Of a DNA stretch of 64,000 bases, positions 2,135 through 45,381 are shown piece after piece (position 1 is the stretch's first letter; each line of letters begins with the position of its first letter). The DNA lies in the NCBI GenBank assembly GCA_020852955.1, contig JADYZW010000054.1, positions 11,139-75,138 on the forward strand. The letters are read 5' to 3'. The translations under genes and the position numbers were made by a program. The notes beneath the pieces were generated by a model. The model had not been told where the DNA came from. It worked only from the letters and a program-made list of their open reading frames with translations, and ran no database searches. Origin of the DNA: Deltaproteobacteria bacterium. GTDB lineage: Bacteria; Desulfobacterota; Binatia; UTPRO1.

Positions 2135-2862
2135 GCGCCCCCTCGCCCGCCCTCGCGCGCCTGCTCGCGAAGACCCCAGCGCGCCTCGCCGTCGGGCGCA
2201 GCGGCCCGCGACTCCCGACCGCCTCCTACCTCCGCTTCCTCGCCGACCACGGCCGCGCGCGCGACGCCGTCTTCATGGAGGTCCCGCCCGCGACGGTGAA
2301 GAAGCTCGGGCTCGTCGAGCTCGCGACCGCAGCCGGGTCGCGGGCCACGTACCTCCGCGAGCCCGGCCTCGGACGTACGCTCGCTCCGAGCGCCCGCGCC
2401 CGCCTCGCGCGCTGCCGGAAGCGCCCGGAGGTGCAGCTGATCGTCATCGACGGGCTCTCGTCGGCGGCCGTCGTCGCGCACGCGGGCACGCTGCTGCGCG
2501 TCCTCGTGCGCGAGCTCGGCAAGCGGCGCCGGCGGCTCGGCACGCCGCTGTTCGTCCGCCACGGCCGCGTGCGCATCCAGGACGAGATCGGACACGTGCT
2601 CCGCCCCGAGGTGTGCTGCGCGATCGTCGGCGAGCGGCCCGGTCTCGCGACCGCGGCGAGCCTCTCGGCGTACGTCATCCATCGACCGACCCGCGCGTCG
2701 ACGGAGCCCGACCGCACGTTGATCTCGAACATCCACGACGGCGGTGTCGCGCCGGCGGCGGCCGCGCGCCAGATCGCCGACCTCGTCGACGCGTGCCTCG
2801 CGCACGCGGCGAGCGGCGCGGCGCTCGCGACGGCGCTCGCCGCCGGCACGCGCGCCCGGTAG
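2131..2862 (+). CDS. eutC: Ethanolamine ammonia-lyase small subunit
   Basis: ATG at 2131 overlaps the eutB stop (ATGA). MSAPSPALARLLAKTPARLAVGRSGPRLPTASYLRFLADHGRARDAV.. is typical EutC. The track ORF start at 1984 is an out-of-frame extension over eutB. Confidence 0.9.
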   Translation: MSAPSPALARLLAKTPARLAVGRSGPRLPTASYLRFLADHGRARDAVFMEVPPATVKKLGLVELATAAGSRATYLREPGLGRTLAPSARARLARCRKRPEVQLIVIDGLSSAAVVAHAGTLLRVLVRELGKRRRRLGTPLFVRHGRVRIQDEIGHVLRPEVCCAIVGERPGLATAASLSAYVIHRPTRASTEPDRTLISNIHDGGVAPAAAARQIADLVDACLAHAASGAALATALAAGTRAR

Positions 2863-3052
2863 CACGCACGTTACGGACATCCCCGCCCCTTCCCGTAGGG
2901 AACGCCAGCGCACCTGCGCGGGAGCGGAGCCGGCCGCCGTCGCCGCCGCGATCGCGCAGCGGCGCCAGGCACGCGGTCGCTCCTCCGCGCCGCGGCCGCA
3001 TTCGAGCGCGCACGCCTTGACTGCCCCGGCGAATCTCCATACCGCCTGTCCC

Positions 3053-4225
3053 GTGCATCGCTCCCTCCTCGGGCTGATCGTCTGCCCGCGCTGTCGCGAG
3101 CGCTTCACCTTGGATGTCTACCGCGAGGCCGCCTCCGCCCACGGCGGCGAGCCCGAGATCCTCGAGGGAGCCCTCGCCTGCAGCGCGTGCGCCGCGGCGT
3201 ATCCCGTCGTCGCGGGCGTACCGCGTCTCCTCGGGCCCGCGCTCCTCGTGCGCGTCCGGGAACGGCACCCGCAGTTCTTCGCGACGTATCCGCAGTTTCT
3301 CGGCGCGCGCGCGGCGAACGACGATCCGCTCGCCGATACCCTCGAGAGCTTCACGCGCCAGCGGCTCGATCTCGACCTCCCCGGGCCCGCGCTCGCCGCG
3401 CAGTGGCGCCGCAACCTGCGACGCAACCTCGGCGATGCCCTCACACTCGACCAGCTCCGCGGGCGGCGCATCCTCGACGTCGGCTGCGGGTTCGGACGGC
3501 ACCTCCTGGTTGCCGCCGAGCACGGCGCCGAGGTCGTGGGCGTCGATCTCTCCGGCGGCGTCGAGGTGGCGTATCGCAACCTCGGCAGCCGGCCGAACTG
3601 CCATATCATCCAGGCCAACGTCCACGAGCGCCCGCTCCGCGACGCCACCTTCGACGTCGTCTGGTCGTTCGGCGTGCTGCACCACATGCCGGACCCGGCC
3701 GCGGGCTTTCGCGCGCTCGTCGAGTTCGCCCGCCCGGACGGCGGCCTCATCGCGATCTGGGTCTACGGCTATCGCGGCATGAGCTTCACGTACCGGTTGT
3801 CGCACATGCGCGCGCTCCACACCGTCACGCGCTCGCTCTCGGGATCCGCGCGGCTGCGCGCGTCGGCGGTGGTGGCCGCCGTGCTGTCGGCCCTCTACTG
3901 GGAGCCGCTCCGTGTCCTGCGCCGGCTCGGGCTCGGCCGCGTCGTCGAGCGGATGCCGCTCAGCGACTACGTCGCCCACGGCTGGATGGCCCGCGTCGCC
4001 GGGGTCCACGACCGCCTCTCCACGCCGATCACGCATTTCCACGACCGCGAGGAGCTCGAGCACTGGCTCCGCGCGGCCAGGCTGGCAAGCATTCGGGTCG
4101 AGGACACGGGGCGGCGTGGCTGGCGCGCCTCCGGTCGCCGCGTACCCCATCCCGGGGCGGCGAGCCGTCCGCATACGGGCGCGAACGGCCCGGGGCGGCA
4201 CGAAGGCCGTCCCCTGCCGGGCTGA
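3053..4225 (+). CDS. Trm112-like zinc-ribbon domain fused to a class I SAM-dependent methyltransferase
   Basis: In-frame GTG at 3053. CPRC...CSAC..YPVVAGVPRLL (Trm112-like) followed by ILDVGCGFGRH (motif I) and VVWSFGVLHHMPDP. The exact start is uncertain. Confidence 0.75.
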   Translation: MHRSLLGLIVCPRCRERFTLDVYREAASAHGGEPEILEGALACSACAAAYPVVAGVPRLLGPALLVRVRERHPQFFATYPQFLGARAANDDPLADTLESFTRQRLDLDLPGPALAAQWRRNLRRNLGDALTLDQLRGRRILDVGCGFGRHLLVAAEHGAEVVGVDLSGGVEVAYRNLGSRPNCHIIQANVHERPLRDATFDVVWSFGVLHHMPDPAAGFRALVEFARPDGGLIAIWVYGYRGMSFTYRLSHMRALHTVTRSLSGSARLRASAVVAAVLSALYWEPLRVLRRLGLGRVVERMPLSDYVAHGWMARVAGVHDRLSTPITHFHDREELEHWLRAARLASIRVEDTGRRGWRASGRRVPHPGAASRPHTGANGPGRHEGRPLPG

Positions 4226-4322
4226 GTCGCGGCGCCGCGGGTCGGCGCCGCACGCGCGGCGCCGCGCGCCTCCCGGCTGGCCGCCCGCGGCGCGGCCGGT
4301 GTATAGGGGGCCGCCCGTCCTC

Positions 4323-5312
4323 GTGCGTACGCTCTTCTACGTCCTCGCCGCGGCCGCCGCGCTCGTCGTCGCGTTCGCGATCTCGGCGGCGCGCGCGCAG
4401 TACCCTCGGCTCCGCCTCGAGCGCCTGGCGTTCCGTTTCCTGATCCCGATCGGGCAACGCGTGGTCGGCCTGCGTGCGCGCCCCGCCTCCGAGGCCTGGC
4501 AGGGCTTCGTGTTCGAGCGCCCCGAAGCCCTGCGCGAGTTGCGCGAGCGGTACGACCTCGACACCCTCGTCCGCGACGCGGACAACGACTTCGAGCGCTG
4601 GGTGCGCCTCATGCACTGGACGCGGGACCGCTTCCCTCATCGTCCGAATCGCGCCGCGCCCGATGCCCAGGCGTTCGATGGCGCAGCGCTCCTCGCCCGC
4701 CGCGGCGCGGACGACGGGTACCTCTGCGGCACCATCGCTCCGCTGCTCGTCCAGGCCGTGACGGCCCTCGGCGGCCGCGCCCGCCGGGTCGAACTCCGCT
4801 TCACGCCGCACGACAGCCATGTCGTCGTCGAGGTGTGGTCGAGCCACGTCGGGAAGTGGCTCGTGCTCGACCCCGACTACGACGCCTGGTTCACCGTCGA
4901 CGGCGTTCCGCAGCACGCGCTCGAGCTCCACGCGCTCTGGGCGCGCGGCGCCATCGACGCGGTGCGCGTGCACTGGCGCGCGAGCCCCCACAACATCTAC
5001 CGCCCGGAGCTCGAGGGCGGCCCGCGCGAGTTCCTGCGCGGCATCTTCGCGGACCGCGCCTGGACCCGCTGGGATCGCGAGCGCCATCGGCACAAGGGCG
5101 AGCGCTTCGCCGTTCGGCTCCTCAACTACTACAGCCACGTCTCCTTCCCGCGGCGGAACGACTGGCGCTCGCGCCCTCTCCCGTGGTGGCATCCCGAGGG
5201 CAATCACGTCCAGGGCTCCCTCGTGATCGCCCTGCCGACGATGCCCGACTGGGAGGACTTCCTCGTCCGCGTCCCGACCGCCGACGCGTTCTACGGACCG
5301 CCGCCCGGCTGA
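4323..5312 (+). CDS. Transglutaminase-like (Cys-His-Asp papain-fold) protein with an N-terminal TM/signal segment
   Basis: In-frame GTG at 4323 followed by the hydrophobic VRTLFYVLAAAAALVVAFAISAARA. GYLCGTIAPLL (Cys), SHVVVEVW (His), LVLDPDYD (Asp). Confidence 0.65.
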   Translation: MRTLFYVLAAAAALVVAFAISAARAQYPRLRLERLAFRFLIPIGQRVVGLRARPASEAWQGFVFERPEALRELRERYDLDTLVRDADNDFERWVRLMHWTRDRFPHRPNRAAPDAQAFDGAALLARRGADDGYLCGTIAPLLVQAVTALGGRARRVELRFTPHDSHVVVEVWSSHVGKWLVLDPDYDAWFTVDGVPQHALELHALWARGAIDAVRVHWRASPHNIYRPELEGGPREFLRGIFADRAWTRWDRERHRHKGERFAVRLLNYYSHVSFPRRNDWRSRPLPWWHPEGNHVQGSLVIALPTMPDWEDFLVRVPTADAFYGPPPG

Positions 5313-5316
5313 CGGC

Positions 5317-7266
5317 TCACGCGCTCAGCCGCTCGAGCTTCTCGTACAGGCCTTCGACCTCGCGCTTGAGGCGGGCGTACGTCGAGAACGCCGCCTGCGG
5401 GTTCGGATGCGTCTGGTAAAAGTCGGGGTCGTTCATCACCTGCGAGAGCTCGGCGAGCTCCGCCTCCTTCGTCGCGATCGAGCTCTCGACGCTCGCCGCC
5501 TCCTTGGCGCGCTTCTCCGCCGCGCGCGCCGCCTTGCGCTCGGCGTCACGGGCCGCGCGCTCGGATTCGCGCGTCGGGGCGGCGTCCGCGCCGTCCGCGC
5601 CCGCCGCCGGCATCGTCGTGGGAGCGAGCGTCCTCGGCCTCGTCGTCGTCACCACCACCCCGCCCGCCTTGCGCGTAAGGTAGTCCTCGTAGTTTCCGAG
5701 ATGGCGGACGGCCTCGCCGTGTCCGACCTCCAGGATCTCGCCCGGCAGGTGGTCGAGGATGTAGCGATCGTGCGCGACCAGCACGACGGTTCCCTCGTAC
5801 GCCAGGAGCGCCTCGAGCAGCACCTCCTTGGCGGTGAGATCGAGGTGGTTCGTCGGCTCGTCGAGGAGGAGGCAGTTGGCCGGCTCGATGAGGAGCTTCG
5901 CCAGCGCCAGCCGGTTCCGCTCGCCGCCGGAGAGCACGCGCACCGGCTTGTCGGCGGCGTCGCCGCTGAAGAGGAAGGCGCCGAGGAGGTCGCGTACTCG
6001 CGGCACCATCTCGACGGGCGTCACCGCCATCATCTCCTCGAGCACGGTCTTCGTCGGGTCGAGGACCGCCGACTGATCCTGCGCGAAGTACGCGAGCCGC
6101 ACGTTGTGGCCCGCCGTGCGCTTCCCCTCGGTGAGCGCCTCGACGCCCGCCAGCATCTTGAGGAGCGTCGATTTCCCGGCCCCGTTCGGACCGACGAGCG
6201 CGACCTTGGTGCCGCGCTCGATGGCCACGTCGACGCCGCCGTACACCTCGACGTCGCCGTAGCGCTTCACCGCCCCCTCCACGCCGACGACGATGCGGCC
6301 GCTGCGGGGAGGCGCCGGCAGGCGGATCGTCACCCGTCGCTCGTGCCCTTCGGGCGGCGCGAGCCGCTCCATCTTCTCGAGCTGCTTCACGCGACTCTGC
6401 ACCTGGGTCGCCTTCGATGCCTGGTAGCGGAAGCGCCGGATGAACGCTTCGACGCGCTCGATCTCCTCGCGCTGCTCGGCGTAAGCGGCGGCCTCCTGCG
6501 CGCGGCGCTCCTCGCGCTGCTCCAGGTAGCGCGTGTAGTTGCACGTGTAGTCGGTGAGGCGGCCGCGCGAGACCTCGGTGATGCGGTCCACGCAGACGTC
6601 GAGGAAGTAGCGATCGTGCGCGACGAGGATGACGAGCGACTCGCACGACGCCAGGAACTCCTCGAGCCAGGTCCGCGCCTCGAGGTCGAGGTGATTGGTC
6701 GGCTCGTCGAGGAGGAGCACACGCGGACGCCGGAGGAGGAGCTTCGCGAGCGCGATCCGCATCTGCCACCCGCCGCTGAAGGTGCCGACGTCGCGGGTGA
6801 AGTCTTCGGTGCGGAAGCCGAGGCCGTTCAGCACGCGCTCGGTTTCGGCCTCGAGGTCGTAGCGGGCCGACGCGTCGAAGCGGTCGCGCACGTCGTGATA
6901 CGCGGTCATCAACGCGTCGTGCTCGGGGCCGGTCGTCGGGGCTCGCGCCAAGGCGTCTTCGAGGCGGCGGCACTCGTCCTCGAGCGCGTGCTGGTCCGCG
7001 AAGGCGTCGAGCGCCTCCGTCATGACGGTCCGGCCGGAGACGCCGATCACCTCCTGCGGCAGATAGCCGACGCTCGCGCCCTTGGGGAGCACGATCTCGC
7101 CGCCGTCGGGCTCCATCTGGCCGGCGATCATCCTGAGCAGGGTCGACTTCCCCGCGCCGTTCATCCCGGTGAGGCCGATGCAGGCGCGCTCGGGCGCGAA
7201 CCAGTTCACCCCGTCGAGGATCCGCTGTCCCCGGAAGGCCTTGGTGAGGTTCGCGATCGTGAGCAT
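5317..7266 (-). CDS. ABC-F family ATPase (two ABC domains, C-terminal coiled-coil; Uup/YheS-like)
   Basis: Two Walker A motifs (GMNGAGKST, GPNGAGKST), two signature motifs (FSGGWQMR, LSGGERNR), no TM domain, K/E/A-rich tail. Confidence 0.9.
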   Translation of the reverse strand: MLTIANLTKAFRGQRILDGVNWFAPERACIGLTGMNGAGKSTLLRMIAGQMEPDGGEIVLPKGASVGYLPQEVIGVSGRTVMTEALDAFADQHALEDECRRLEDALARAPTTGPEHDALMTAYHDVRDRFDASARYDLEAETERVLNGLGFRTEDFTRDVGTFSGGWQMRIALAKLLLRRPRVLLLDEPTNHLDLEARTWLEEFLASCESLVILVAHDRYFLDVCVDRITEVSRGRLTDYTCNYTRYLEQREERRAQEAAAYAEQREEIERVEAFIRRFRYQASKATQVQSRVKQLEKMERLAPPEGHERRVTIRLPAPPRSGRIVVGVEGAVKRYGDVEVYGGVDVAIERGTKVALVGPNGAGKSTLLKMLAGVEALTEGKRTAGHNVRLAYFAQDQSAVLDPTKTVLEEMMAVTPVEMVPRVRDLLGAFLFSGDAADKPVRVLSGGERNRLALAKLLIEPANCLLLDEPTNHLDLTAKEVLLEALLAYEGTVVLVAHDRYILDHLPGEILEVGHGEAVRHLGNYEDYLTRKAGGVVVTTTRPRTLAPTTMPAAGADGADAAPTRESERAARDAERKAARAAEKRAKEAASVESSIATKEAELAELSQVMNDPDFYQTHPNPQAAFSTYARLKREVEGLYEKLERLSA

Positions 7267-7456
7267 CCGGTCGTTGTATCGACAGACGCCCCGCCCTGCC
7301 AGCGACGCCGACGCCAGTCGCGTCCGTTCGCGCCGAGCGCCAGCTAGAGCCCGCCCATGGAGATCGCACCGCCTCTCCCCGCCGCCGTCGTGGCGGCCGC
7401 CGCCACCGCGACCCCGCCGCGCCCCTCCGTCCTCGGCCCCGCCGCGGGGGCCAGCG

Positions 7457-7906
7457 TCAGGCCGGTGGCCGCACCTTGACGATCACCGTCTTGCCGCCTC
7501 GCACCCGCTCCGCGTTCGGCTTGAAGAGGCCGAGCCACGCGATCCAGTACTTCCGCGCGTAGACCGGCGCCATGCGGGCGGCGAGCTCGGGATCGCGAAG
7601 CACTTCCGCCGGACCGACGAAGTGCGGCCCGTCGGCGCTTCCGACCCAGACGTAGAGCGGGCTCCCCTTCGTGATGCGCTTCGCCTTGTAGGTCGTCGGA
7701 AGCGTCGTGAAGTAGATCGCGTCGCCGTCGTACATGAACCATACCGGCACGACCTTGCCGATCGTGCCGTCGGCGCGCCTGGTCGCGACGTAGATCTCCT
7801 TCGACGACTGCAGGGCCGCCGTGACCTCGGGACCGAAGCCCGCCTGCGCGACCGCCGCGAGCGCGATCGACCCGAGGATCATCATGAGCACGAGCATCCG
7901 GCGCAT
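7457..7906 (-). CDS. Pyridoxamine-5'-phosphate-oxidase-like split-barrel protein with a predicted signal peptide
   Basis: ATG at 7906 preceded by GGAGGGAGG. MRRMLVLMMILGSIALAAVAQA then EIYVATRRADGTIGKVVPVWFMYDGDAIYFTT. Confidence 0.6.
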   Translation of the reverse strand: MRRMLVLMMILGSIALAAVAQAGFGPEVTAALQSSKEIYVATRRADGTIGKVVPVWFMYDGDAIYFTTLPTTYKAKRITKGSPLYVWVGSADGPHFVGPAEVLRDPELAARMAPVYARKYWIAWLGLFKPNAERVRGGKTVIVKVRPPA

Positions 7907-34431: not shown

Positions 34432-34522
34432 GGTTCCTTCCTTTTAGCCGCTCGGGATCGCGCCCGCTACCGCGGTCGCGCGGAGTTCATTCGACGAAAC
34501 GTCTTCTGGTACACTCCGCGCC

Positions 34523-35770
34523 ATGGCCAGAAGCACCTCGAGCGACGTCGTCGCGCTGATCCTCGCCGGCGGCGAAGGGAAGCGCCTCTACCCTCTGACC
34601 CGCGACCGGGCCAAGCCCGCCGTTCCCTTCGGCGGCCGCTACCGCATCATCGATTTCGTCCTCTCCAACTTCGTCAACTCCGGCATCTCCAAGATCAGCG
34701 TGCTCACCCAGTACAAGGCGGGCTCGCTCATGCAGCACCTGGCGCGCGGATGGCAGCTGGCGCCGCAGCTCGGGCACTACGTGGCGCCCGTCCCGGCGTC
34801 CATGAACGTCGGTCCGCAGTGGTTCCGCGGCAGCGCCGACGCCGTCTTCCAGAACCTCGACGTGCTCGAGAACGAGCAGCCGCGCGAGGTCTGCGTCTTC
34901 GGCGCCGACCACATCTACCAAATGGACGTCTGCCAGATGCTCGACTTCCATCGCGCGCGCGGCGCCGACGTGACCGTCGCGGTGATCCCGGTGCCGGCGA
35001 CCGACATGGACCAGTTCGGCATCGTCGACTGTAACGCGGCGGGCGCCATCGTCGGCTTCCGCGAGAAGCCGCCCGTCGACGCCGGCGCGACCGGCACGCG
35101 GCTCGCGTCGATGGGCCTCTACGTCTTCGGCTGCGCGGCGCTCGTACGCGCGGTGACCGCCGATGCCGAGCGCACCGACTCCTCGCACGACTTCGGGAAG
35201 GACGTGCTGCCGCGCATGGTCGAGAGCTCGGCGACCGTCGTCGCCTACGATTTCTCGGCCAACACGATCCCCGACATGCACGACGGCCAACGCGGCTACT
35301 GGCGCGACGTCGGCACGATCGACATGTACTGGCGGACGTCCGAAGACCTGATCTCGATCACCCCGCTCCTGAACCTCTACAACCCGCGTTGGCCGACGCT
35401 CTCCGCCTACTATCCGCACCCGCCGGCGAAGTTCGTCTTCGCCGACCCCGAAGGCCAGCGGCGCGGCATCGCGATCGACTCGATGGTGTCGGAGGGGTGC
35501 ATCATCAGCGGCGGCCACGTGGAGCGGTCGATCCTGAGCCCGCGCGTGCGCGTGAACAGCTACGCCCACGTGCAGGAATCCATCCTCTTCGACGGCGTCG
35601 AGGTCGGCCGGCACGCCCGCATCCGGCGGGCGATCATCGACAAGGGCGTCACCGTACCGCCCAGGATGACCATCGGCTACGATCCGGCCGAGGACCGGCG
35701 CCGTTTCACGGTGAGCGAGGGCGGCGTGGTCGTCGTGCCGAAGAACGCCGACCTCGCCGCGCTGCGATGA
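34523..35770 (+). CDS. glgC: Glucose-1-phosphate adenylyltransferase
   Basis: ALILAGGEGKRLYPLTRDRAKPAVPFGGRYRIIDFVLSNFVNSGI.., GSADAV, left-handed beta-helix C-terminal domain. Confidence 0.93.
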   Translation: MARSTSSDVVALILAGGEGKRLYPLTRDRAKPAVPFGGRYRIIDFVLSNFVNSGISKISVLTQYKAGSLMQHLARGWQLAPQLGHYVAPVPASMNVGPQWFRGSADAVFQNLDVLENEQPREVCVFGADHIYQMDVCQMLDFHRARGADVTVAVIPVPATDMDQFGIVDCNAAGAIVGFREKPPVDAGATGTRLASMGLYVFGCAALVRAVTADAERTDSSHDFGKDVLPRMVESSATVVAYDFSANTIPDMHDGQRGYWRDVGTIDMYWRTSEDLISITPLLNLYNPRWPTLSAYYPHPPAKFVFADPEGQRRGIAIDSMVSEGCIISGGHVERSILSPRVRVNSYAHVQESILFDGVEVGRHARIRRAIIDKGVTVPPRMTIGYDPAEDRRRFTVSEGGVVVVPKNADLAALR

Positions 35771-36354
35771 CCCTTCGGCGCGCGATCTTCGCGGCCGCGC
35801 CGGCGGCGATGGCGCTCGCCGCGCTCGCCCGCGCGGCGGCGGCGATGACGGTCCTCCCCGTCGATCTGCCGGCGATGACGGGACAGGCCGAGCGCATCTT
35901 CGTGGGGCGGGTCGAGCGCGTCACGACCGGGCGCGACGCGCACGGGCTTCCGGCGATCTGGACGACCTTTCGCGTCACCGAACGCTTGAAGGGGCCGGCC
36001 GAGGACGCCGTCACCGTGAAGCAGCTCGGAACGAGCCTCGGCGCGGACGACGCCGGCGTGCTCCCGCACCCCGCGCTCCCGCGCTACCGCGTCGGCGAAG
36101 CGGTCGTCCTCTTCGTGCGCCCCGAGAGCGCGCTCGGCTTCACGAGCCCGGTCGGCCTCGGCCAGGGGTGCTTCCACGTCCGCGGCCGAGACAACGCGGC
36201 CGTCGTCGAGAACGACGTCGGCAACCACAACCTCGCGGCGCCGACCGCGCCGCGGACGCTCGCGGCGCCGGAGGCCGCCGCCGCGCCGCCCGCCCCCCTG
36301 CCGCTCGACGCCTTCCTCGCCCGGGTGCGCGGGCTCGTCGACGCGGAGCGCTGA
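35767..36354 (+). CDS. Secreted hypothetical protein
   Basis: The ATG overlaps the glgC stop (ATGA). Signal-like MTLRRAIFAAAPAAMALAALARAAAA. No family recognised. Confidence 0.5.
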   Translation: MTLRRAIFAAAPAAMALAALARAAAAMTVLPVDLPAMTGQAERIFVGRVERVTTGRDAHGLPAIWTTFRVTERLKGPAEDAVTVKQLGTSLGADDAGVLPHPALPRYRVGEAVVLFVRPESALGFTSPVGLGQGCFHVRGRDNAAVVENDVGNHNLAAPTAPRTLAAPEAAAAPPAPLPLDAFLARVRGLVDAER

Positions 36355-36360
36355 GGTCGC

Positions 36361-38508
36361 GTGCGCGAACGACTCGCTCTCGCCGGCGCGCTGGCGCTGC
36401 TCGCGCTCTCGGCGGCGCCCGGCCTCGCCGCGGGCCCGATCTTCGTCGCCGACGACGGCGCGCCGCTCGTATGGCGGATTCGCCCGGTCCCGTGGAGCTC
36501 GGACCGCGGCGGCCTCGGCGTGCTCGACGAAGCGGCGGCTCGCCAGCTCGTCGCGGACGGCTTCGCGGTCTGGGCCGCCGTGCCGACTGCCGACATCGCC
36601 TTCGCCGCCGCCGGCGCGCTGCCGGTGGACGTCGGCGCACCCGACGTCGGCCGGTTCGTCGGCGTCTGCGACGACGGCGTCAGCCCGATCGTCTTCGACA
36701 CCGACGGCGCGATCACCGACGCGCTCTTCGGTGCCGGCGCATCGGGCTCCATCCTCGGGTTCGCGGGCCCCGAGTGCGGCACCTTCTCTCCGCCCGAGAT
36801 CACCGAAGCCTCGGCCGTCCTCAACGGGAAGTTCATCGACGGCGTCGCCAGCGCTGGCAACGCCGAGGTGAGCCTCGACGTCTTCCGCGGCGTGATGATC
36901 CACGAGCTCGGCCACTACGTGAACCTCGACCACTCGCAGATCAACCTCCTCGAGGCGTTCGACGGCGCGTCGGCCGGCGACGACGCCATCGCAACGATGT
37001 TCCCCTTCGTCGTGAGCGGTCCTGAGATGGCGACGCTCGCCCGCGACGACGAGGCGTCGCTCTCGGGGCTCTACCCGGCCGACGATTTCGCCGCGACGAC
37101 CGCGGCCATCACGGGCGAGGTCCGCCGCGGGGACACCGACGCGCCCTTCCGCGGCGCGTTCGTGATCGCCCGCAACGTCGAGGATCCGCGGCGCGACGCG
37201 GTCGGCTGGGTGTCGGGCGCACGCCACGTGCCGGGCAGCAGCGCGCCGGACGCCGCCGCGCTCGCCGGCGCCTACGAACTCGCGGGCCTGACGCCCGGCG
37301 CTCGCTACACGATCGAGGTCGAAGCCGTGTCGCCGCTCTTCGCCGGCGGATCCTCCGTCGGCCCGCTGAGTCCGCCACCGACGCTGCCGGGTCCGCCGGA
37401 GCGGTGGAGCGGCGGCGACGAAGCCGCGACGAATCCCCCCGACGACCCGACCGCGTCCGGCGTCGAGATCCCCGTCGCCGCGGGCGACCTGGTGAGCGGC
37501 GTCGACGTGGTCCTGAACGTCACCCTGCCCCCGCCGAACGACGCCTGCGGCGCCGCGACCGACGTCACGAGCTTCCCCTTCACGACCACGATCGAGACGC
37601 GCCTCGCGACGAGCGCGGCCGGCGATCCGACGCCGCGCTGCCTCGCCGCCCCGAATCCGAAGGCGTCGAAAAGCGTCTGGTTCCGTCTCGCCTCGCCGCT
37701 CGCCGGCACGCTGACCCTCTCCACGGCCGGCAGCGACTACGACACGGTGCTCACCGCCTGGACCGGAACCTGCGGCAGCCTCGCGGGCGTCGCCTGCAAC
37801 GACGACGGCCCGAGCGGTCTCGCGGCCGGCGTCACCCTGCCGATCGCCGCGGAAACGCCGTACCTGGTCGCCGTCACGGACTTCGCATCGACGGGCGGCA
37901 CGCTGGTCTTCACCGCAACCTTCGAGCTCGCCCCGACGCCCGCATGCCGCGCCGACGCGCCCGGCGAGTGCATCCCCGGCAGCGGCGCGCCGCGGACCGA
38001 CTGCGTCACCGAGTGGCTCGTGCAGCCTGTCCCGCCGCTCGCGAGCACCCGTCCCGGCACGCGCTACGCTCCGAGCTACCGCGCGAGCTGCCGCGACGGC
38101 GACCCGCGCTGCGACTTCGACGGCAGCGCCACCAAGAACGGGCGCTGCGTCTTCCACGTCGCGATCTGCGCCAATAACGTCGACCCGCGCCCCGCCGCCC
38201 GACGCTGCGTCCCGTCGACGCTCGACGAATATTACCTGCTCGCGCCGAGCGTCGAGCGGCCGCGCGACGCGGTCGACGCCGCGAACGCGGCGACGCTGCT
38301 CGCGGCGGTGGCGGGCCTCGGCGTCCCACCCGCACCGACGGTCGCCGCCGGCCGCGTAGCGTTCAGCCCCGCGCTCGCGACGCTCGATCGCTGCACGACG
38401 CTGCAGCCGATCGTCGTCCCAGTCGGAACGCGCGTGCTGCGGAGCCGCGCGCTCACCCCGGGCGCGCGGAGCGACACGGACCAGCTCCGCTTGCGCTGCC
38501 TGAAGTAG
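36361..38508 (+). CDS. Secreted multidomain zinc metalloprotease (metzincin/matrixin-like) with a beta-sandwich domain, an NDxC...CNDD module and a 10-Cys C-terminal module
   Basis: Signal peptide ..LALSAAPGLAAG. HELGHYVNLDHS (HExxHxxxxxH) plus a Met-turn-like ATMFP. ITGEVRR..YTIEVEAV (CarboxypepD_reg-like). NDACGAA..DTVLTAWTGTCGSLAGVACNDD. Confidence 0.75.
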   Translation: MRERLALAGALALLALSAAPGLAAGPIFVADDGAPLVWRIRPVPWSSDRGGLGVLDEAAARQLVADGFAVWAAVPTADIAFAAAGALPVDVGAPDVGRFVGVCDDGVSPIVFDTDGAITDALFGAGASGSILGFAGPECGTFSPPEITEASAVLNGKFIDGVASAGNAEVSLDVFRGVMIHELGHYVNLDHSQINLLEAFDGASAGDDAIATMFPFVVSGPEMATLARDDEASLSGLYPADDFAATTAAITGEVRRGDTDAPFRGAFVIARNVEDPRRDAVGWVSGARHVPGSSAPDAAALAGAYELAGLTPGARYTIEVEAVSPLFAGGSSVGPLSPPPTLPGPPERWSGGDEAATNPPDDPTASGVEIPVAAGDLVSGVDVVLNVTLPPPNDACGAATDVTSFPFTTTIETRLATSAAGDPTPRCLAAPNPKASKSVWFRLASPLAGTLTLSTAGSDYDTVLTAWTGTCGSLAGVACNDDGPSGLAAGVTLPIAAETPYLVAVTDFASTGGTLVFTATFELAPTPACRADAPGECIPGSGAPRTDCVTEWLVQPVPPLASTRPGTRYAPSYRASCRDGDPRCDFDGSATKNGRCVFHVAICANNVDPRPAARRCVPSTLDEYYLLAPSVERPRDAVDAANAATLLAAVAGLGVPPAPTVAAGRVAFSPALATLDRCTTLQPIVVPVGTRVLRSRALTPGARSDTDQLRLRCLK

Positions 38509-38515
38509 CGCGGCG

Positions 38516-39541
38516 TCAGCCGGCGATGTCGAGCCGGCGGCGCCCCGCCGCCGACGGCGGCCGGAAGCTCGCGCACTCGAGGCCCCGGTCGCGCAGGCGC
38601 TTGTAGAGCGTCGGGCGGCTCACGCCGAGCTCGTGGGCCGCGCGCGTCACGTTGCCGCCGCAGCGGCGGAGGCACGCGACGAGCTCGGCGGCGCCGGGCC
38701 CGCCGACGCTCCGGGCGCTGCGCGCCGCGAGCGCGAGGCGCACGTCGGCGGCGCCGATCTCCGCGCCGTCGGCGTAGAGCACGACCTCGCGGACGACGTT
38801 CTCGAGCTCGCGCACGTTGCCCGGCCACGCGTAGGCGGCGAGCGTCCGGCGGGCGGGCTCGTCGAGCGCGAGCCCGGGCCGGCCGAGGTCGCGCGCCGTC
38901 CGCGCCGCGATCCGATCGGCGAGCGCCATCACGTCGTCGGCGCGGTCGCGGAGCGGCGGCACCTCGATGACGACGCCGCTCAGGCGGTAGTAGCAGTCGG
39001 CGCGGAACGCGCCGCGCTCGACGAGGTCACGGAGATCGCGGTTCGTCGCCGCGACCACGCGCACGTCGACGACGACCGGCCGATCGGCGCCCACCCGCTG
39101 CGCCTCGCCCTCCTGGAGCAGGCGCAGGAGCTTGCACTGGAGGGACGGCGGCAGCTCGCCGATCTCGTCGAGGAAGAGCGTGCCGCCATCGGCCTCGGCC
39201 GCGCGACCGAGCCGCCGGCCGATCGCTCCCGTGAACGCGCCGCGTTCGTGTCCGAAGAGCTCGGCGTCGATGAGCTCGGCCGACAGCGCGCCGCAGTTCA
39301 CCGGCACGAAGGGACCGTGGCGGCGCAGACCGTCGGCGTGGATCGCGCGCGCCAGCAGCTCCTTTCCCGTACCGGTCTCGCCCTGGAGTAGGACGGGCAC
39401 CTCCGTCGGCGCGACCCGCGCCACCCGCGCGCGCAACCGTTCCATCGCCGGGCTCCCGCCGACCAGCCGCGCGAGACCGCCCGCCACCGGGCCGCGCGGC
39501 GCCGCGGTTCGCGCCTCTTCGAGTGCCGTCAGCGTCGCCAT
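38516..39541 (-). CDS. Sigma-54-dependent transcriptional activator consisting only of AAA+ and Fis-type HTH domains (no sensory/REC domain)
   Basis: ATG at 39541. GSPAM, Walker A GETGTGKE, ERGAFTGA (GAFTGA loop), LFLDEIGELP, WPGNVRELEN, C-terminal GNVTRAAHELGVSRPTLYKRL. Confidence 0.85.
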   Translation of the reverse strand: MATLTALEEARTAAPRGPVAGGLARLVGGSPAMERLRARVARVAPTEVPVLLQGETGTGKELLARAIHADGLRRHGPFVPVNCGALSAELIDAELFGHERGAFTGAIGRRLGRAAEADGGTLFLDEIGELPPSLQCKLLRLLQEGEAQRVGADRPVVVDVRVVAATNRDLRDLVERGAFRADCYYRLSGVVIEVPPLRDRADDVMALADRIAARTARDLGRPGLALDEPARRTLAAYAWPGNVRELENVVREVVLYADGAEIGAADVRLALAARSARSVGGPGAAELVACLRRCGGNVTRAAHELGVSRPTLYKRLRDRGLECASFRPPSAAGRRRLDIAG

Positions 39542-39661
39542 CGCGACGCACGCTACGCGTCGGCCCCGCGCCGACGCAACGCGACGAGTAGCCGTCGCCG
39601 TCGCCCGCCGCCTCCTCGAGCGGCTCCCGCCGCCCCGGCGCAAAATTCCACCTTGACTACG

Positions 39662-39677
39662 TGGTCAGCGGAAAGCA
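39662..39677 (+). promoter_or_regulatory. Sigma-54 (-24/-12)-like element upstream of the Cys-rich protein gene
   Basis: TGGTCAGCGGAAAGCA has GG and GC at exactly the consensus spacing of TGGCACG-N4-TTGCA. Caveat: the GC is only about 20 nt from the ATG at 39696, so the predicted start site would fall in or next to the GGGGAGGAGG RBS. Confidence 0.3.
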
Positions 39678-39695
39678 TTTCGAGGGGAGGAGGAT

Positions 39696-40586
39696 ATGCC
39701 CATGAAGCGCCGTTCGTCGCTCTTCGTCGCCGCCGTCGCGCTCCTCGTCGGGAGCGCCACCTTCGCCACCGCCGGAGCCAGGCCGTGCCTGCGGGAAGCC
39801 AAGCGTGATGCCAAAGATTGTGCCGCGGACTGCAAGGAAGCCCTGCAGACCGCCAAGGACGCCTGCCTCAATCGCGACCACGCGTGCGTCGAAGTCTGTC
39901 GCGCCAACCGGTCGCAGTGCCGGCTCGACAGCGGCTTCGACGCCGCGATCGACGCGTGCAACGACACCCTCGAGGCACGCCGCGCGACGTGCCGTGCCGA
40001 GAACCCCCCCGGCGACGACCGCGATGTCTGCGTCGATCGGGCGCAGGTCGACGCGTTCGAGTGCCGCGACGCCGCACGCGAGCTCGCACGGCCGTTGCTG
40101 AAGCAGTGCCGCAAGGACTTCCGCGCCTGCGCCAAGGCCTGTCCGGCGCCCGCGCCGGCGGATCCTGCGGTCGACGCGAAGCAGTGCATCCGCGACGCCA
40201 ACGCGGCCGCCAAGGCCTGCGGCGCCGCCTGCCGCGAGGAATACCAGGGCGCGAAGGACGACTGCCGCCATCGCGATCACGAGTGCATGGAAGGATGTCG
40301 CGCCGAACGCACCGCCTGCCGGGCCCCGGTGCGGGCCGAGTTCGACGCCGATCTCGCGGCCTGCGCCGCCGCGCGCGCGACCGGCATCGCCGACTGCGCG
40401 ACGCAGTTCCCGTTGCCGCGCGACGAGGCCGCGGCGATCGCCTTCGATCAGTGTGTCGACGCGGTGCAGGTGACGGCGTTCGTCTGCCGCGACGACGCGC
40501 ACGAGGAAGCACGGCCGGGGCTCGTCGCGTGCCGGCAGGCGTTCCGCGCCTGCGTCGACACCACCTGCCCGGTGCTGCCGGAGTAA
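39696..40586 (+). CDS. Secreted, internally duplicated cysteine-rich protein (28 Cys, 14 per half), no recognised family
   Basis: Strong RBS GGGGAGGAGG. Signal peptide MKRRSSLFVAAVALLVGSATFATAGA. The two halves align: ..CLREAKRDAKDCAADCKEALQTAKDACLNRDHACVEVCRANRSQCR.. and ..CIRDANAAAKACGAACREEYQGAKDDCRHRDHECMEGCRAERTACR... Confidence 0.65.
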   Translation: MPMKRRSSLFVAAVALLVGSATFATAGARPCLREAKRDAKDCAADCKEALQTAKDACLNRDHACVEVCRANRSQCRLDSGFDAAIDACNDTLEARRATCRAENPPGDDRDVCVDRAQVDAFECRDAARELARPLLKQCRKDFRACAKACPAPAPADPAVDAKQCIRDANAAAKACGAACREEYQGAKDDCRHRDHECMEGCRAERTACRAPVRAEFDADLAACAAARATGIADCATQFPLPRDEAAAIAFDQCVDAVQVTAFVCRDDAHEEARPGLVACRQAFRACVDTTCPVLPE

Positions 40587-40592
40587 CGTCCC

Positions 40593-40624
40593 CCGGGGAG
40601 GCCGGCGCGCGCCGGCCTCCCCGG
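40593..40624. terminator. Perfect 32-nt palindrome between convergent genes (bidirectional terminator-like hairpin)
   Basis: CCGGGGAGGCCGGCGC|GCGCCGGCCTCCCCGG, located 7 nt after the stop at 40586 and 24 nt from the stop of the minus-strand gene at 40648. Confidence 0.55.
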
Positions 40625-40647: not shown

Positions 40648-41367
40648 TCACCGCCGGACCTGCATGGCGCCGCCCGCGGCGGACGGCGACAACGGCCGGA
40701 TGCATCCCGGCCCGTCCGTGCGCGCCGCGTTCACGAGCTTCGAGACCGGATACGCCTCCATCGCGTCCTCGGGGTAGGGCCGCAGCAGAGCCCCGAGGTC
40801 GGCCGGTGACGCGCCGCGCGCGATCCACGTCGCGCGCGCCTCGAGAGGAACGATCACCGGCATGCGGTCGTGGATCGGCGCGACCACGCCGTTGGCCTCG
40901 CACGTGACGATCGCGCAGGTGATGAGCGGCGCACCCTCCGCGGCCCTCCAGCGCTCCCACACCCCGGCGAAGCCGAACGGCCGCCGCGAGCGCAAGCGGA
41001 TGAACCAGGGTTGGCGCCCGCGGCCGTCCCGGCGCCACTCGTAGAAGCCGTCCGCCACGACGAGGCAGCGCCGGCGCGCGAACGCGTCTCGAAACGTGCG
41101 GTTCGTCGCGATCGTCTCGGCGCGGGCGTTGATCGCGCGCGGCCCGCCCTTCGGGTCGCGCGCGAACCACGGCACGAGCCCCCAGCGCATGACGCCCGCT
41201 GCCGGGGTTCCGACGCCCGCCGACGTCGCCCCCCGCGCGACGACGAGCACCTGCTCGCTCGGGCACACGTTGAAGCGCGGCTCCGCCGGCGCGACCGTCT
41301 CGATCCGGACGCCGAACTCCTCGGCGATCGCCTGCGGGGGGCTCGAGCGCGTGAAGCGGCCGCACAT
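40648..41367 (-). CDS. SOS-response-associated peptidase (SRAP/YedK family, abasic-site DNA-protein crosslink)
   Basis: Start chosen so the protein begins MCGRF (catalytic Cys2). ..RFNVCPS.., MRWGLVPWFA, INARAETI, RRCLVVADGFYEW. Confidence 0.85.
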   Translation of the reverse strand: MCGRFTRSSPPQAIAEEFGVRIETVAPAEPRFNVCPSEQVLVVARGATSAGVGTPAAGVMRWGLVPWFARDPKGGPRAINARAETIATNRTFRDAFARRRCLVVADGFYEWRRDGRGRQPWFIRLRSRRPFGFAGVWERWRAAEGAPLITCAIVTCEANGVVAPIHDRMPVIVPLEARATWIARGASPADLGALLRPYPEDAMEAYPVSKLVNAARTDGPGCIRPLSPSAAGGAMQVRR

Positions 41368-41432
41368 CGCCGCCACCGTAGCGCAGGCCGGTCGGCCTTG
41401 ACACCGTCGACGCGGACGGCGAGGGTCACGCG

Positions 41433-44604: not shown

Positions 44605-45381
44605 TCAGATGCGCAGGCTGCCCGTGTTCAGCCGGCCGCCGCCGTCGACGTGGATGACCGCGCCGTTCACGTAGCCCGCGCGATCGGATGCGAGAAAGGC
44701 GACGAGCTCCGCCACCTCGCGCATCGTCCCGATCCGGTTCGCCGGAATGCCCTTCACGACTCGCGCCCGGAGATCGTCGGGCATCATCTGCACCAGCTCG
44801 GTCGCGACGAGGCCGGGAAGCACCGCGTTGCACGTGATGCCGTCGCGCCCGTGCTCGAGGGCGACCGTCTCGGTGAGCCCGAGGAGGCCGGCCTTGCTCG
44901 CCGCGTACCCCGACTGATGGCGCCAGCCGCCGGTCGCCGCGACCGAGGAGATGTTGACGATGCGCCCCCAGCCGCGCGTCGCCATCGCGCCGAGCACGGC
45001 CTGGGTCAGGTGAAAGGCGCCGCCGAGGTTCACCGCAAGGTCACGCTGCCAGTCGGCCGGCGGCATCGCGGCGAGCGGCGCGACGTTGTGGACGATCGCG
45101 GCGCAGTTCACCAGCACGTCGATCGGGCCGAGCCGATCCCGCAGCGTCCGCAGGCCCTCCCGGACCGCATCGGCGTCCGCGACGTCGAACACGGCCGCCT
45201 CGGACAACCCACCCGAGTCGCGGATCGCGACCGCGGTCGCCTCGACCTCGGCGAGAACGTCGTTGACGCCGACCGCCGCGCCGCGCTCGGCCAAGAGCTC
45301 GGCGATCGCGCGGCCGATGCCGCGCGCTGCGCCGCTCACGAGCGCGGTCTTCCCCGCCAGGTCCTGGACCGCGGCGCTCAC
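44605..45381 (-). CDS. Short-chain dehydrogenase/reductase (FabG-like)
   Basis: The GTG start overlaps the upstream stop (GTGA). SGAARGIGRA, NCAA, YAASKAG, NAVLPG. Confidence 0.85.
   Translation of the reverse strand: MSAAVQDLAGKTALVSGAARGIGRAIAELLAERGAAVGVNDVLAEVEATAVAIRDSGGLSEAAVFDVADADAVREGLRTLRDRLGPIDVLVNCAAIVHNVAPLAAMPPADWQRDLAVNLGGAFHLTQAVLGAMATRGWGRIVNISSVAATGGWRHQSGYAASKAGLLGLTETVALEHGRDGITCNAVLPGLVATELVQMMPDDLRARVVKGIPANRIGTMREVAELVAFLASDRAGYVNGAVIHVDGGGRLNTGSLRI

Follow-up and report, generated by a model that had tools for sequence, protein, structure and literature searches.

The stretch of DNA analyzed here, which we refer to as the window, comprises 64,000 nucleotides (71% G+C) of a contig from a 'Deltaproteobacteria bacterium' that GTDB places in the Binatia (assembly GCA_020852955.1, contig JADYZW010000054.1, positions 11,139–75,138 of the forward strand). 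Within it, two genes lie head to head, separated by 154 bp: on the minus strand, a gene for a 341-amino-acid sigma-54 activator, or bacterial enhancer-binding protein (bEBP), that carries no sensor domain (38516–39541), and on the plus strand, a gene for an exported Cys-rich protein (39696–40586). An original prediction, made from the letters of the window alone, had taken the two for a divergent regulator–target pair connected by a sigma-54 promoter in the intergenic region. We compared the genes, their predicted products and the DNA between them with relatives elsewhere, including 109 fetched loci (designated by L numbers), and refer to the loci whose Cys-rich protein is at least ~60% identical to that of the window as the window's clade.

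The activator has the two elements by which a bEBP is recognized, an AAA+ sigma-54 interaction domain with a GAFTGA motif and a C-terminal Fis-type helix-turn-helix (HTH). Pfam places Sigma54_activat (PF00158) at residues 26–192 (E 6e-65), AAA_lid_14 at 198–276 and HTH_8 (PF02954) at 287–317 (E 3e-11), and the Walker A motif GETGTGKE, DEIGEL and GAFTGA are all legible in the translation, so the AAA+ core is intact, as the original prediction had held. Its description of the protein as sensor-less also stands: only 25 residues (it had estimated about 30) precede the AAA+ domain, and a Pfam and NCBIfam scan of the 341-amino-acid protein detected no REC, GAF, PAS or V4R domain. Relatives at 64–90% identity are all ~310–370 amino acids long and have the identical domain set, likewise with no regulatory domain, and the NCBI entry for the identical protein (P0271, from a Deltaproteobacteria metagenome-assembled genome, MAG) is named 'sigma-54-dependent Fis family transcriptional regulator'. 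The activator reaches none of the NCBIfam equivalog cutoffs (266 bits against 443.55 for TIGR02974, the PspF model, and 238 against 529 for NF008622), and no psp genes are found among its neighbors, so it lacks both the equivalog similarity and the pspABC linkage of PspF proper. Judged by its domain content, it is an activator of the PspF/HrpS type, consisting of an AAA+ domain and an HTH only.

Members of the class that includes PspF, HrpR and HrpS carry no regulatory domains that act in cis, and are controlled in trans (PMC3105312). An AAA+ domain with GAFTGA and a C-terminal HTH also make up the architecture of the window's activator, which would therefore likewise be expected to be regulated in trans or through its expression level. 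It differs from these systems in not being a PspF equivalog and in having no pspA-like gene, hrpV-like gene or consensus sigma-54 promoter near it in the window. The activator gene itself has a candidate sigma-70-type promoter (39550–39579, minus strand), read from the sequence as a −35 of TTGCGT (39579–39574), an 18-nucleotide spacer and a −10 of TAGCGT (39555–39550); in an alignment, the hexamers are retained as TTGCGA and TAGCGT in L005 and as TTGCG and TACGGT in L006. The ATG follows this −10 by only 8 nucleotides, so any leader on the mRNA would be very short or absent. A similarly short gap is found at the glgC-like gene of the window (region 34470–34525), where an extended −10-like TGGTACACT lies just 8 nucleotides before the ATG, and the two gaps suggest that leaderless or near-leaderless mRNAs may occur in the source organism.

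The Cys-rich gene encodes 296 amino acids from its first ATG and 294 from the ATG at 39702. Comparison with L005 indicates that the second ATG is probably the homologous start, and it is also the one best spaced from the Shine-Dalgarno sequence GGAGGAGGAT (39685–39694, plus strand); the ribosome-binding site had been called very strong, and its core AGGAGGAT is indeed kept throughout the clade. The predicted Sec-type signal peptide spans residues 1–27 (39696–39776), with MKRR as its n region, SLFVAAVALLVG as its h region and SATFATAGA as its c region ahead of RPC, and would be cleaved after A-G-A in accord with the AxA rule; an equivalent N terminus is present in all homologs. A Tat signal was considered and rejected because the twin arginine is not conserved among homologs, and a lipoprotein was rejected because there is no lipobox. 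Behind the signal peptide, 28 Cys residues (~10% of the protein) fall into two sets of 14 at near-identical spacing, with 10-3-10-6-3-6-12-10-12-10-14-6-3 intervening residues in the first half, a linker of 14, and 10-3-10-6-3-6-14-10-18-10-14-6-4 in the second. The halves are 46% identical (E 1e-21), which bears out the earlier report of two homologous 14-Cys halves; the first spacing, given there as nine residues, is ten.

No known family claims this protein. Searches of Pfam (E ≤ 0.1) and NCBIfam returned zero matches and a profile search of the PDB (E ≤ 10) returned nothing, in agreement with the original failure to recognize a family, and we found no literature on cysteine-rich proteins of Binatia. 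A 90%-clustered database yielded at least 169 homologs, and an exhaustive phmmer search of 1.84 billion representatives yielded 186 representative clusters; neither this search nor a profile search with one-module members recovered any annotated remote relative, each returning only the same unnamed family. All members are unnamed and have no Pfam domains, and the named sources are uncultured MAGs labeled Candidatus Binatia or 'Deltaproteobacteria'. Members are of two kinds: those with one module are ~155–165 amino acids long, begin with a signal peptide, contain 14 or 16 Cys and end in a CPPxP tail, and those with two modules are ~290 amino acids long. The family is thus undescribed, and it is structurally unusual for bacteria.

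AlphaFold2 modeled the full protein with helices only (predicted local distance difference test, pLDDT, 90.5; predicted template modeling score, pTM, 0.79) and a single module with higher confidence (pLDDT 95.5), in line with the helical character originally predicted. The models, a module hidden Markov model and the Cys census delimit module 1 as residues 28–152 (39777–40151; helices 29–55, 62–78, 81–102 and 107–147) and, with the identity between the halves, module 2 as residues 161–294 (40176–40577; helices 161–192, 195–237 and 244–290). Each ~130-amino-acid module would form a long alpha-hairpin, its 41-residue helix 4 being antiparallel to helices 2 and 3. Foldseek comparisons of the full and one-module models with the PDB gave best E values of 0.57 and 0.62, to merely generic long alpha-hairpins such as those of AcrA, TolC-family efflux channels and colicins.

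The positions of the Cys residues suggest how they are bonded. Those of each helix lie on one face, at i+3, i+4, i+7 or i+11 spacings, and the spacings of facing helices mirror each other. C64-x3-C68-x6-C75 is matched by C138-x6-C145-x3-C149, with residue numbers that sum to 213, and (C84)-x3-C88-x10-C99 by C112-x10-C123-x3-(C127), which sum to 211, the Cys at 84 and 127 being optional. Helix 1 is palindromic in itself (C31-x10-C42-x3-C46-x10-C57) and mirrors helix 1′ of module 2 (C164, C175, C179 and C190), with a sum of 221. The same partners covary. Over 360 modules, the optional Cys 84 and 127 are both present in 47 and both absent in 312, with a single discordant case, and loss of C68 and C145 is joint in all three instances. 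Among 139 two-module proteins, C46 of module 1 and C175 of module 2 are lost jointly in 24 of 24 cases, with zero discordance (Fisher 2e-27) and with the losses spread over seven separate clades of a neighbor-joining tree; C42 and C179 are jointly lost twice.

Mirrored spacing and recurrent paired loss, the two lines of evidence on which the map is based, together suggest that each module is stapled by five disulfides and that four more link the two modules. In module 1 the predicted bonds are C64–C149, C68–C145, C75–C138, C88–C123 and C99–C112, and the first helices of the two modules would pair antiparallel through C31–C190, C42–C179, C46–C175 and C57–C164. With four inter-module bonds of this kind, one-module members would form the same architecture as a covalent homodimer, and the two-module gene accordingly looks as though it arose when that dimer was duplicated and fused. 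We envisage a product that is exported by Sec, oxidized outside the cytoplasm and folded into an all-alpha, rod-like pseudo-dimer, which would make a very rigid periplasmic or extracellular scaffold, probably resistant to proteases and heat. Residues other than Cys are also conserved (R124 in 97%, F121 in 92% and R69 in 91%, with D55, D61, H62, R72, D114, Q117, D125 and E129 in 80–88%), and R69, R72, D114, Q117, F121, R124, D125, R128 and E129 line up in a polar and aromatic stripe that is repeated on both modules. That this stripe is a binding or packing surface is a guess, as is any physiological role that we might propose for the protein.

A structural parallel is found in mitochondria. In the CHCH fold, an antiparallel helix-turn-helix is held by disulfides between mirrored CXnC motifs, which form after translocation into an oxidizing compartment. 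The mitochondrial intermembrane space contains alpha-hairpin proteins of the twin CX9C (CHCH) and twin CX3C types, among them Cox17, Cox19 and the small Tims (PMC4571295). The Cys-rich protein resembles these in structural principle, not in family membership: it lacks a pair of CX9C motifs, has no PF06747-type match and shows neither sequence nor Foldseek similarity to them. It differs further in being bacterial and Sec-exported, in its x10, x3 and x6 spacings instead of x9, and in scale, with two disulfides in ~70 amino acids of a CHCH protein compared with a predicted five per ~130-amino-acid module plus four between modules.

A periplasmic metal or redox buffer had been among the roles first suggested. 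On this view, the Cys residues would not be disulfide-bonded and would instead act as thiolates lining a helical core, storing or buffering Cu(I) or another soft metal as in Csp1 and Csp3. Those proteins are likewise small, bacterial, all-helical and very rich in Cys, with Cys that point inward from their helices, and a Cys content of ~10% confined to one face per helix, an all-helical model and the odd number of Cys in some members would all suit such a function. However, Csp proteins are compact four-helix bundles, whereas the Cys-rich protein is modeled as an elongated hairpin that has no Pfam, PDB sequence or fold match to Csp, its best fold matches (all at E > 0.5) being to long alpha-hairpins and not to four-helix bundles. 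Moreover, gains and losses of its Cys strictly follow specific pairs and leave neighboring Cys in place, which argues for independent disulfides and not for a Csp-type shared thiolate metal cluster. Csp1 has a Tat-type signal peptide; that of the Cys-rich protein is of the Sec type, so it would arrive unfolded in an oxidizing compartment. Nor did a Pfam census of 119 open reading frames (ORFs) flanking Cys genes at ~42 non-redundant loci find any recurrent copper-homeostasis genes. We therefore consider metal storage unlikely. The same census, which counted 152 families, none more than five times, revealed no recurrent partner of any kind, and Sigma54_activat occurred twice.

Turning to the DNA between the two genes, we found that the element conserved upstream of the Cys-rich gene is of the sigma-70 type. 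In the window it consists of a −35 of TTGACT (39653–39658), conserved as TTGACTAC, a 17-nucleotide spacer and a weak −10-like CATTTC (39676–39681), spanning 39653–39681 on the plus strand. In the window's clade, ~16 fetched loci have the arrangement TTGACTAC-N17-CA(T/A/G)(A/T)nn at about −50, with A/T-rich sequence before it and AGGAGGAT and the ATG after it, and it is kept in loci with no nearby activator (L011, L028, L029 and L031). Two loci at ~63% identity have TTGAC[TA] near −106 to −110 instead. Overall, TTGAC[TA] occurs in 35 of 83 upstream regions, compared with an expectation of 0.014 per 130 nucleotides, and other clades of Cys genes have TACAAT-type −10 boxes upstream. The Cys-rich gene would be monocistronic, with its own sigma-70-type promoter built on the TTGACTAC −35, a strong Shine-Dalgarno sequence and, as described below, a hairpin terminator. 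A separate, highly conserved block of ~130 nucleotides lies at about −190 to −60 in a distant clade at 42–47% identity (L083, L086, L087, L089, L090, L091, L100, L101 and L106); it reads ...GGAGGCCTGTACCAAATGG..GGGGGCAAACGCC..CCCTTGAC-N17-TGTACT, includes a sigma-70-type promoter and has no Rfam match, and in L106 at least, a divergent nuoJ-nuoK-nuoL cluster flanks it on the side away from the Cys gene.

The sigma-54 promoter that the original prediction had placed between the genes, TGGTCAGCGGAAAGCA (39662–39677, plus strand), falls within the spacer of this sigma-70-type promoter and appears to be a chance match. Compared with TGGCAC-N5-TTGCW, its TGGTCA-N5-AAGCA has mismatches at 5 of 11 positions, agreeing only in the T, GG, GC and A. 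By a rough consensus score, 518 of the 1,649 GG-N10-GC sites in the window equal or beat it, and it is not among the window's sigma-54 matches with at most two mismatches, which themselves number 11 against 11.3 expected and so stand at chance level. The −24 GG is found at this position only in the window and L010, as chance predicts for a G+C-rich spacer; the position reads CG in L005, AA in L001 and L006, and AA, CG, TG or the like across L001, L005, L006, L009, L011, L028, L035 and L036. The inverted repeat CGACGC-N7-GCGTCG (39544–39562), also drawn from the original prediction, is present and overlaps the −10 and start region of the activator gene. However, 220 bp contain 10 short inverted repeats, of which this is just one, and L005 has GCATCC in place of the second arm; we rejected it as an enhancer because it is not conserved, and nothing marks it as an operator.

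Gene order leads away from a pairing as well. In the window's clade, the order is sucA, a glgC-like gene, a gene for a 195-amino-acid protein, a gene for a 715-amino-acid protein, the activator gene on the opposite strand, a variable stretch, the Cys gene and, on the opposite strand, a gene for an SOS-response-associated peptidase (SRAP), which the Cys gene usually adjoins. In the window, as in L005 and L006, nothing fills the variable stretch; it measures 2.8 kb in L036 and 4.5 kb in L035. Across the clade, the activator and the Cys gene stand 154 bp, ~0.2–0.4, 2.5–2.8, 4.5 or 5.3 kb apart. In L001, from a 7-Mb MAG contig, a 1,684-amino-acid ORF with no Pfam match separates them (2625–7679, minus strand). 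In L009, L010 and L011, the divergent neighbor of the Cys gene is a TetR-family gene (5188–5817, 5168–5791 and 5074–5703, respectively, all minus strand), followed on the same strand by a gene for an ~525-amino-acid Fe-S protein, and this cassette fills the variable stretch. In L011 the 6 kb around the Cys gene are free of any activator, as are 3.2 kb in L029, and none is present at any of the ~33 loci whose Cys-rich protein has at most 55% identity. Co-occurrence of the Cys family with truncated bEBPs, which the original prediction had named as a check on the pairing, thus fails to tie regulator to target: the activator accompanies the Cys gene only within the clade at ≥60% identity, and at variable distance.

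Loci of more distant activators show what the neighborhood looks like with no Cys gene in it. Among loci of activators at 64–66% identity, the order is SRAP, activator, sigma-54 promoter, beta-helix gene, sucA and sucB in L108 and L109, and Meth_synt_2, activator and glgC-like gene in L107. None of these three loci has a Cys gene, and in two of them SRAP directly adjoins the activator. By this comparison, the older backbone of the activator is SRAP, activator, secreted-protein gene and sucA. Only loci of the window's clade have the Cys gene placed between SRAP and the activator; in other lineages it sits elsewhere, which suggests that it was inserted between the two.

These relatives also indicate what the activator family may regulate. 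An exact GGCAC-N5-TTGCT is absent from the 64-kb window and occurs in 5 of the 109 fetched loci (L023, L024, L108, L109 and L014), four of them beside sensor-less activators, with L023 and L024 being duplicate assemblies of one region. The near-consensus sites TGGCACTTGCCTTGCT in L108, CGGCACCTGCCTTGCT in L109, CGGCACCGCACTTGCT in L024 and TGGCACCGTGATTGCT in L014 are likely to be genuine sigma-54 promoters, and the window contains nothing comparable to them. Those of L108 (8096–8111) and L109 (4732–4747) lie just downstream of the activators that are 64–66% identical to that of the window, and 48–72 nucleotides upstream of a gene for a secreted right-handed beta-helix protein that is followed by sucA and sucB. 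The beta-helix gene probably represents the true type of target for this activator family. We searched the window and the clade loci for that gene and did not find it, and a search of the window and its syntenic loci for the sigma-54 consensus gave no conserved candidate near the activator, the operon of the 715-amino-acid protein or the glgC-like gene.

Two lineages raise a different alternative, that the Cys-rich family generally belongs to sigma-54 regulons and is read through from upstream promoters, with the arrangement in the window as a degenerate remnant. In L024 (1865–1880; duplicate in L023, 5018–5032), a sensor-less activator with 42% identity is divergent from CGGCACCGCACTTGCT, which heads a LolA_like (PF17131) gene, and a Cys-family gene follows 65 bp later; the assembly is frameshifted, which we assume to reflect sequencing errors. 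In L014 (4497–4512), the perfect sigma-54 promoter TGGCACCGTGATTGCT has a GNAT gene on one side and, on the other, a gene for a 145-amino-acid protein, after which come a methyltransferase gene and, 150 bp on, a Cys-family gene; there is no activator within 6 kb. However, these are only 2 of ~46 loci with sufficient upstream sequence, compared with ~0.5 roughly expected by chance, the intervening genes of the two loci are unrelated to each other, and the Cys gene of L024 retains its own TTGACTAG −35 with a TAAGAC(T) −10, just as sigma-70-type elements (TACAAT, TTGAC) are present at most loci. General membership in sigma-54 regulons therefore seems improbable.

We favor the reading, to which we assign a probability of roughly 0.7, that the window holds two independent genes: one for a PspF/HrpS-type activator, whose likely targets would be elsewhere than the Cys-rich gene, and the other a gene that stands alone, is driven by sigma-70 and encodes a Sec-exported helical pseudo-dimer with a ladder of disulfides. 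Their head-to-head position looks like local gene order and not regulatory pairing. Several observations weigh against this conclusion. The activator's actual target was not found in the window. The −10 of the Cys-rich gene is weak (CATTTC, with no T at −7), and a strict sigma-70 consensus scanner calls no promoter there, which is explained by the missing final T. Members with 27 or 13 Cys exist, so at least one Cys must sometimes be unpaired; the even count in the protein of the window fits full pairing. The lineages of L024 and L014 place a Cys-family gene one or two genes downstream of a near-consensus sigma-54 promoter, so some connection with sigma-54 regulons may exist, although two cases among ~46 informative loci are roughly at chance level. 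Finally, the system is known from genes alone, with transcript, protein and disulfides all predicted, and its source organisms are all uncultured.

In Escherichia coli, zraP lies next to zraSR and pspA next to pspF, each an activator gene divergent from the gene for an envelope protein, and the layout of the window is superficially similar, but neither the adjacency nor any sigma-54 promoter or enhancer in the intergenic DNA is conserved. That the sensor-less activator drives the Cys-rich gene from 39662–39677, with the Cys-rich protein as an envelope-stress or redox effector in the manner of these systems, is very unlikely: the head-to-head layout at 154 bp, the correctly spaced GG and GC, the adjacency retained in L005 and L006 and the other sensor-less activator close to a Cys-family gene in L024 would fit it, and against it stand a motif at chance level, inside a conserved sigma-70-type spacer and with no GG in most clade loci, unrelated genes intervening in L001, L009, L010, L035 and L036, no activator within 6 kb in L011 or at any more distant Cys locus, and distant activator loci that lack a Cys gene and whose sigma-54 promoter is on the activator's other side.

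The remaining features of the locus are its neighbors. Convergent with the Cys-rich gene is the SRAP gene (40648–41376, minus strand; Pfam SRAP, E 4e-70), which by synteny is part of the older backbone. Between the two genes, a gap of 61 bp contains a G+C-rich hairpin with a 12-bp stem (40595–40622; −38.3 kcal/mol, z −4.65, as stable in 0 of 200 shuffles) that is probably a bidirectional terminator for both genes, missed by a simple terminator scanner because it has no T-run. On the other side, tail to tail with the activator gene, the 715-amino-acid protein is encoded at 36361–38508 (plus strand), a gene that tblastn synteny places next to the activator in every clade locus whose flank extends far enough. 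This secreted HExxH protein combines a metzincin-like motif, HELGHYVNLDH, with a C-terminal part rich in Cys; its matches, to Peptidase_M10 and the MXAN_2677 family (myxosortase-dependent protease), are only weak. It is preceded by the gene for the 195-amino-acid protein, which is secreted and of no family (35767–36354, plus strand), and both genes appear translationally coupled to the glgC-like nucleotidyl-transferase gene (34523–35770). ARAGORN called two 93–96-nucleotide 'tRNA-Arg(gcg)' genes in G+C-rich coding regions (36192–36287 and 45170–45262, both minus strand); no Rfam tRNA reaches the gathering threshold in the window, so both calls are almost certainly false positives, and Rfam searches of the window and four loci found nothing.

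Had the two genes formed a true regulator–target pair, they would have represented a novel stress module of the sigma-54 type; the evidence speaks otherwise, and the pairing should not be propagated. The activator family probably acts on near-consensus sigma-54 promoters ahead of genes for secreted beta-helix or LolA-like proteins. For the Cys-rich family, a broader and more tentative proposal, which we regard as possible and rather doubtful, is that it represents a new class of covalently locked alpha-hairpin dimers, with 4 inter-subunit and 10 intra-subunit disulfides in ~270 residues, existing both as one-module homodimers and as the fused pseudo-dimer, apparently confined to uncultured Binatia-labeled and related bacteria, serving as an abundant, hyperstable scaffold or binder in the envelope or outside the cell, and in some lineages possibly wired into sigma-54 envelope modules (L024, with its LolA-like gene, and L014). 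Whatever its role, the disulfide density of the family, with ~10% Cys and probably 14 disulfides, is exceptional for bacteria, and the covariation between modules illustrates a route from a covalent homodimer to a fused pseudo-dimer. If the predicted disulfide map is true, these proteins would be attractive as hyperstable helical scaffolds and would mark a heavy reliance on oxidative folding in the bacteria that make them.

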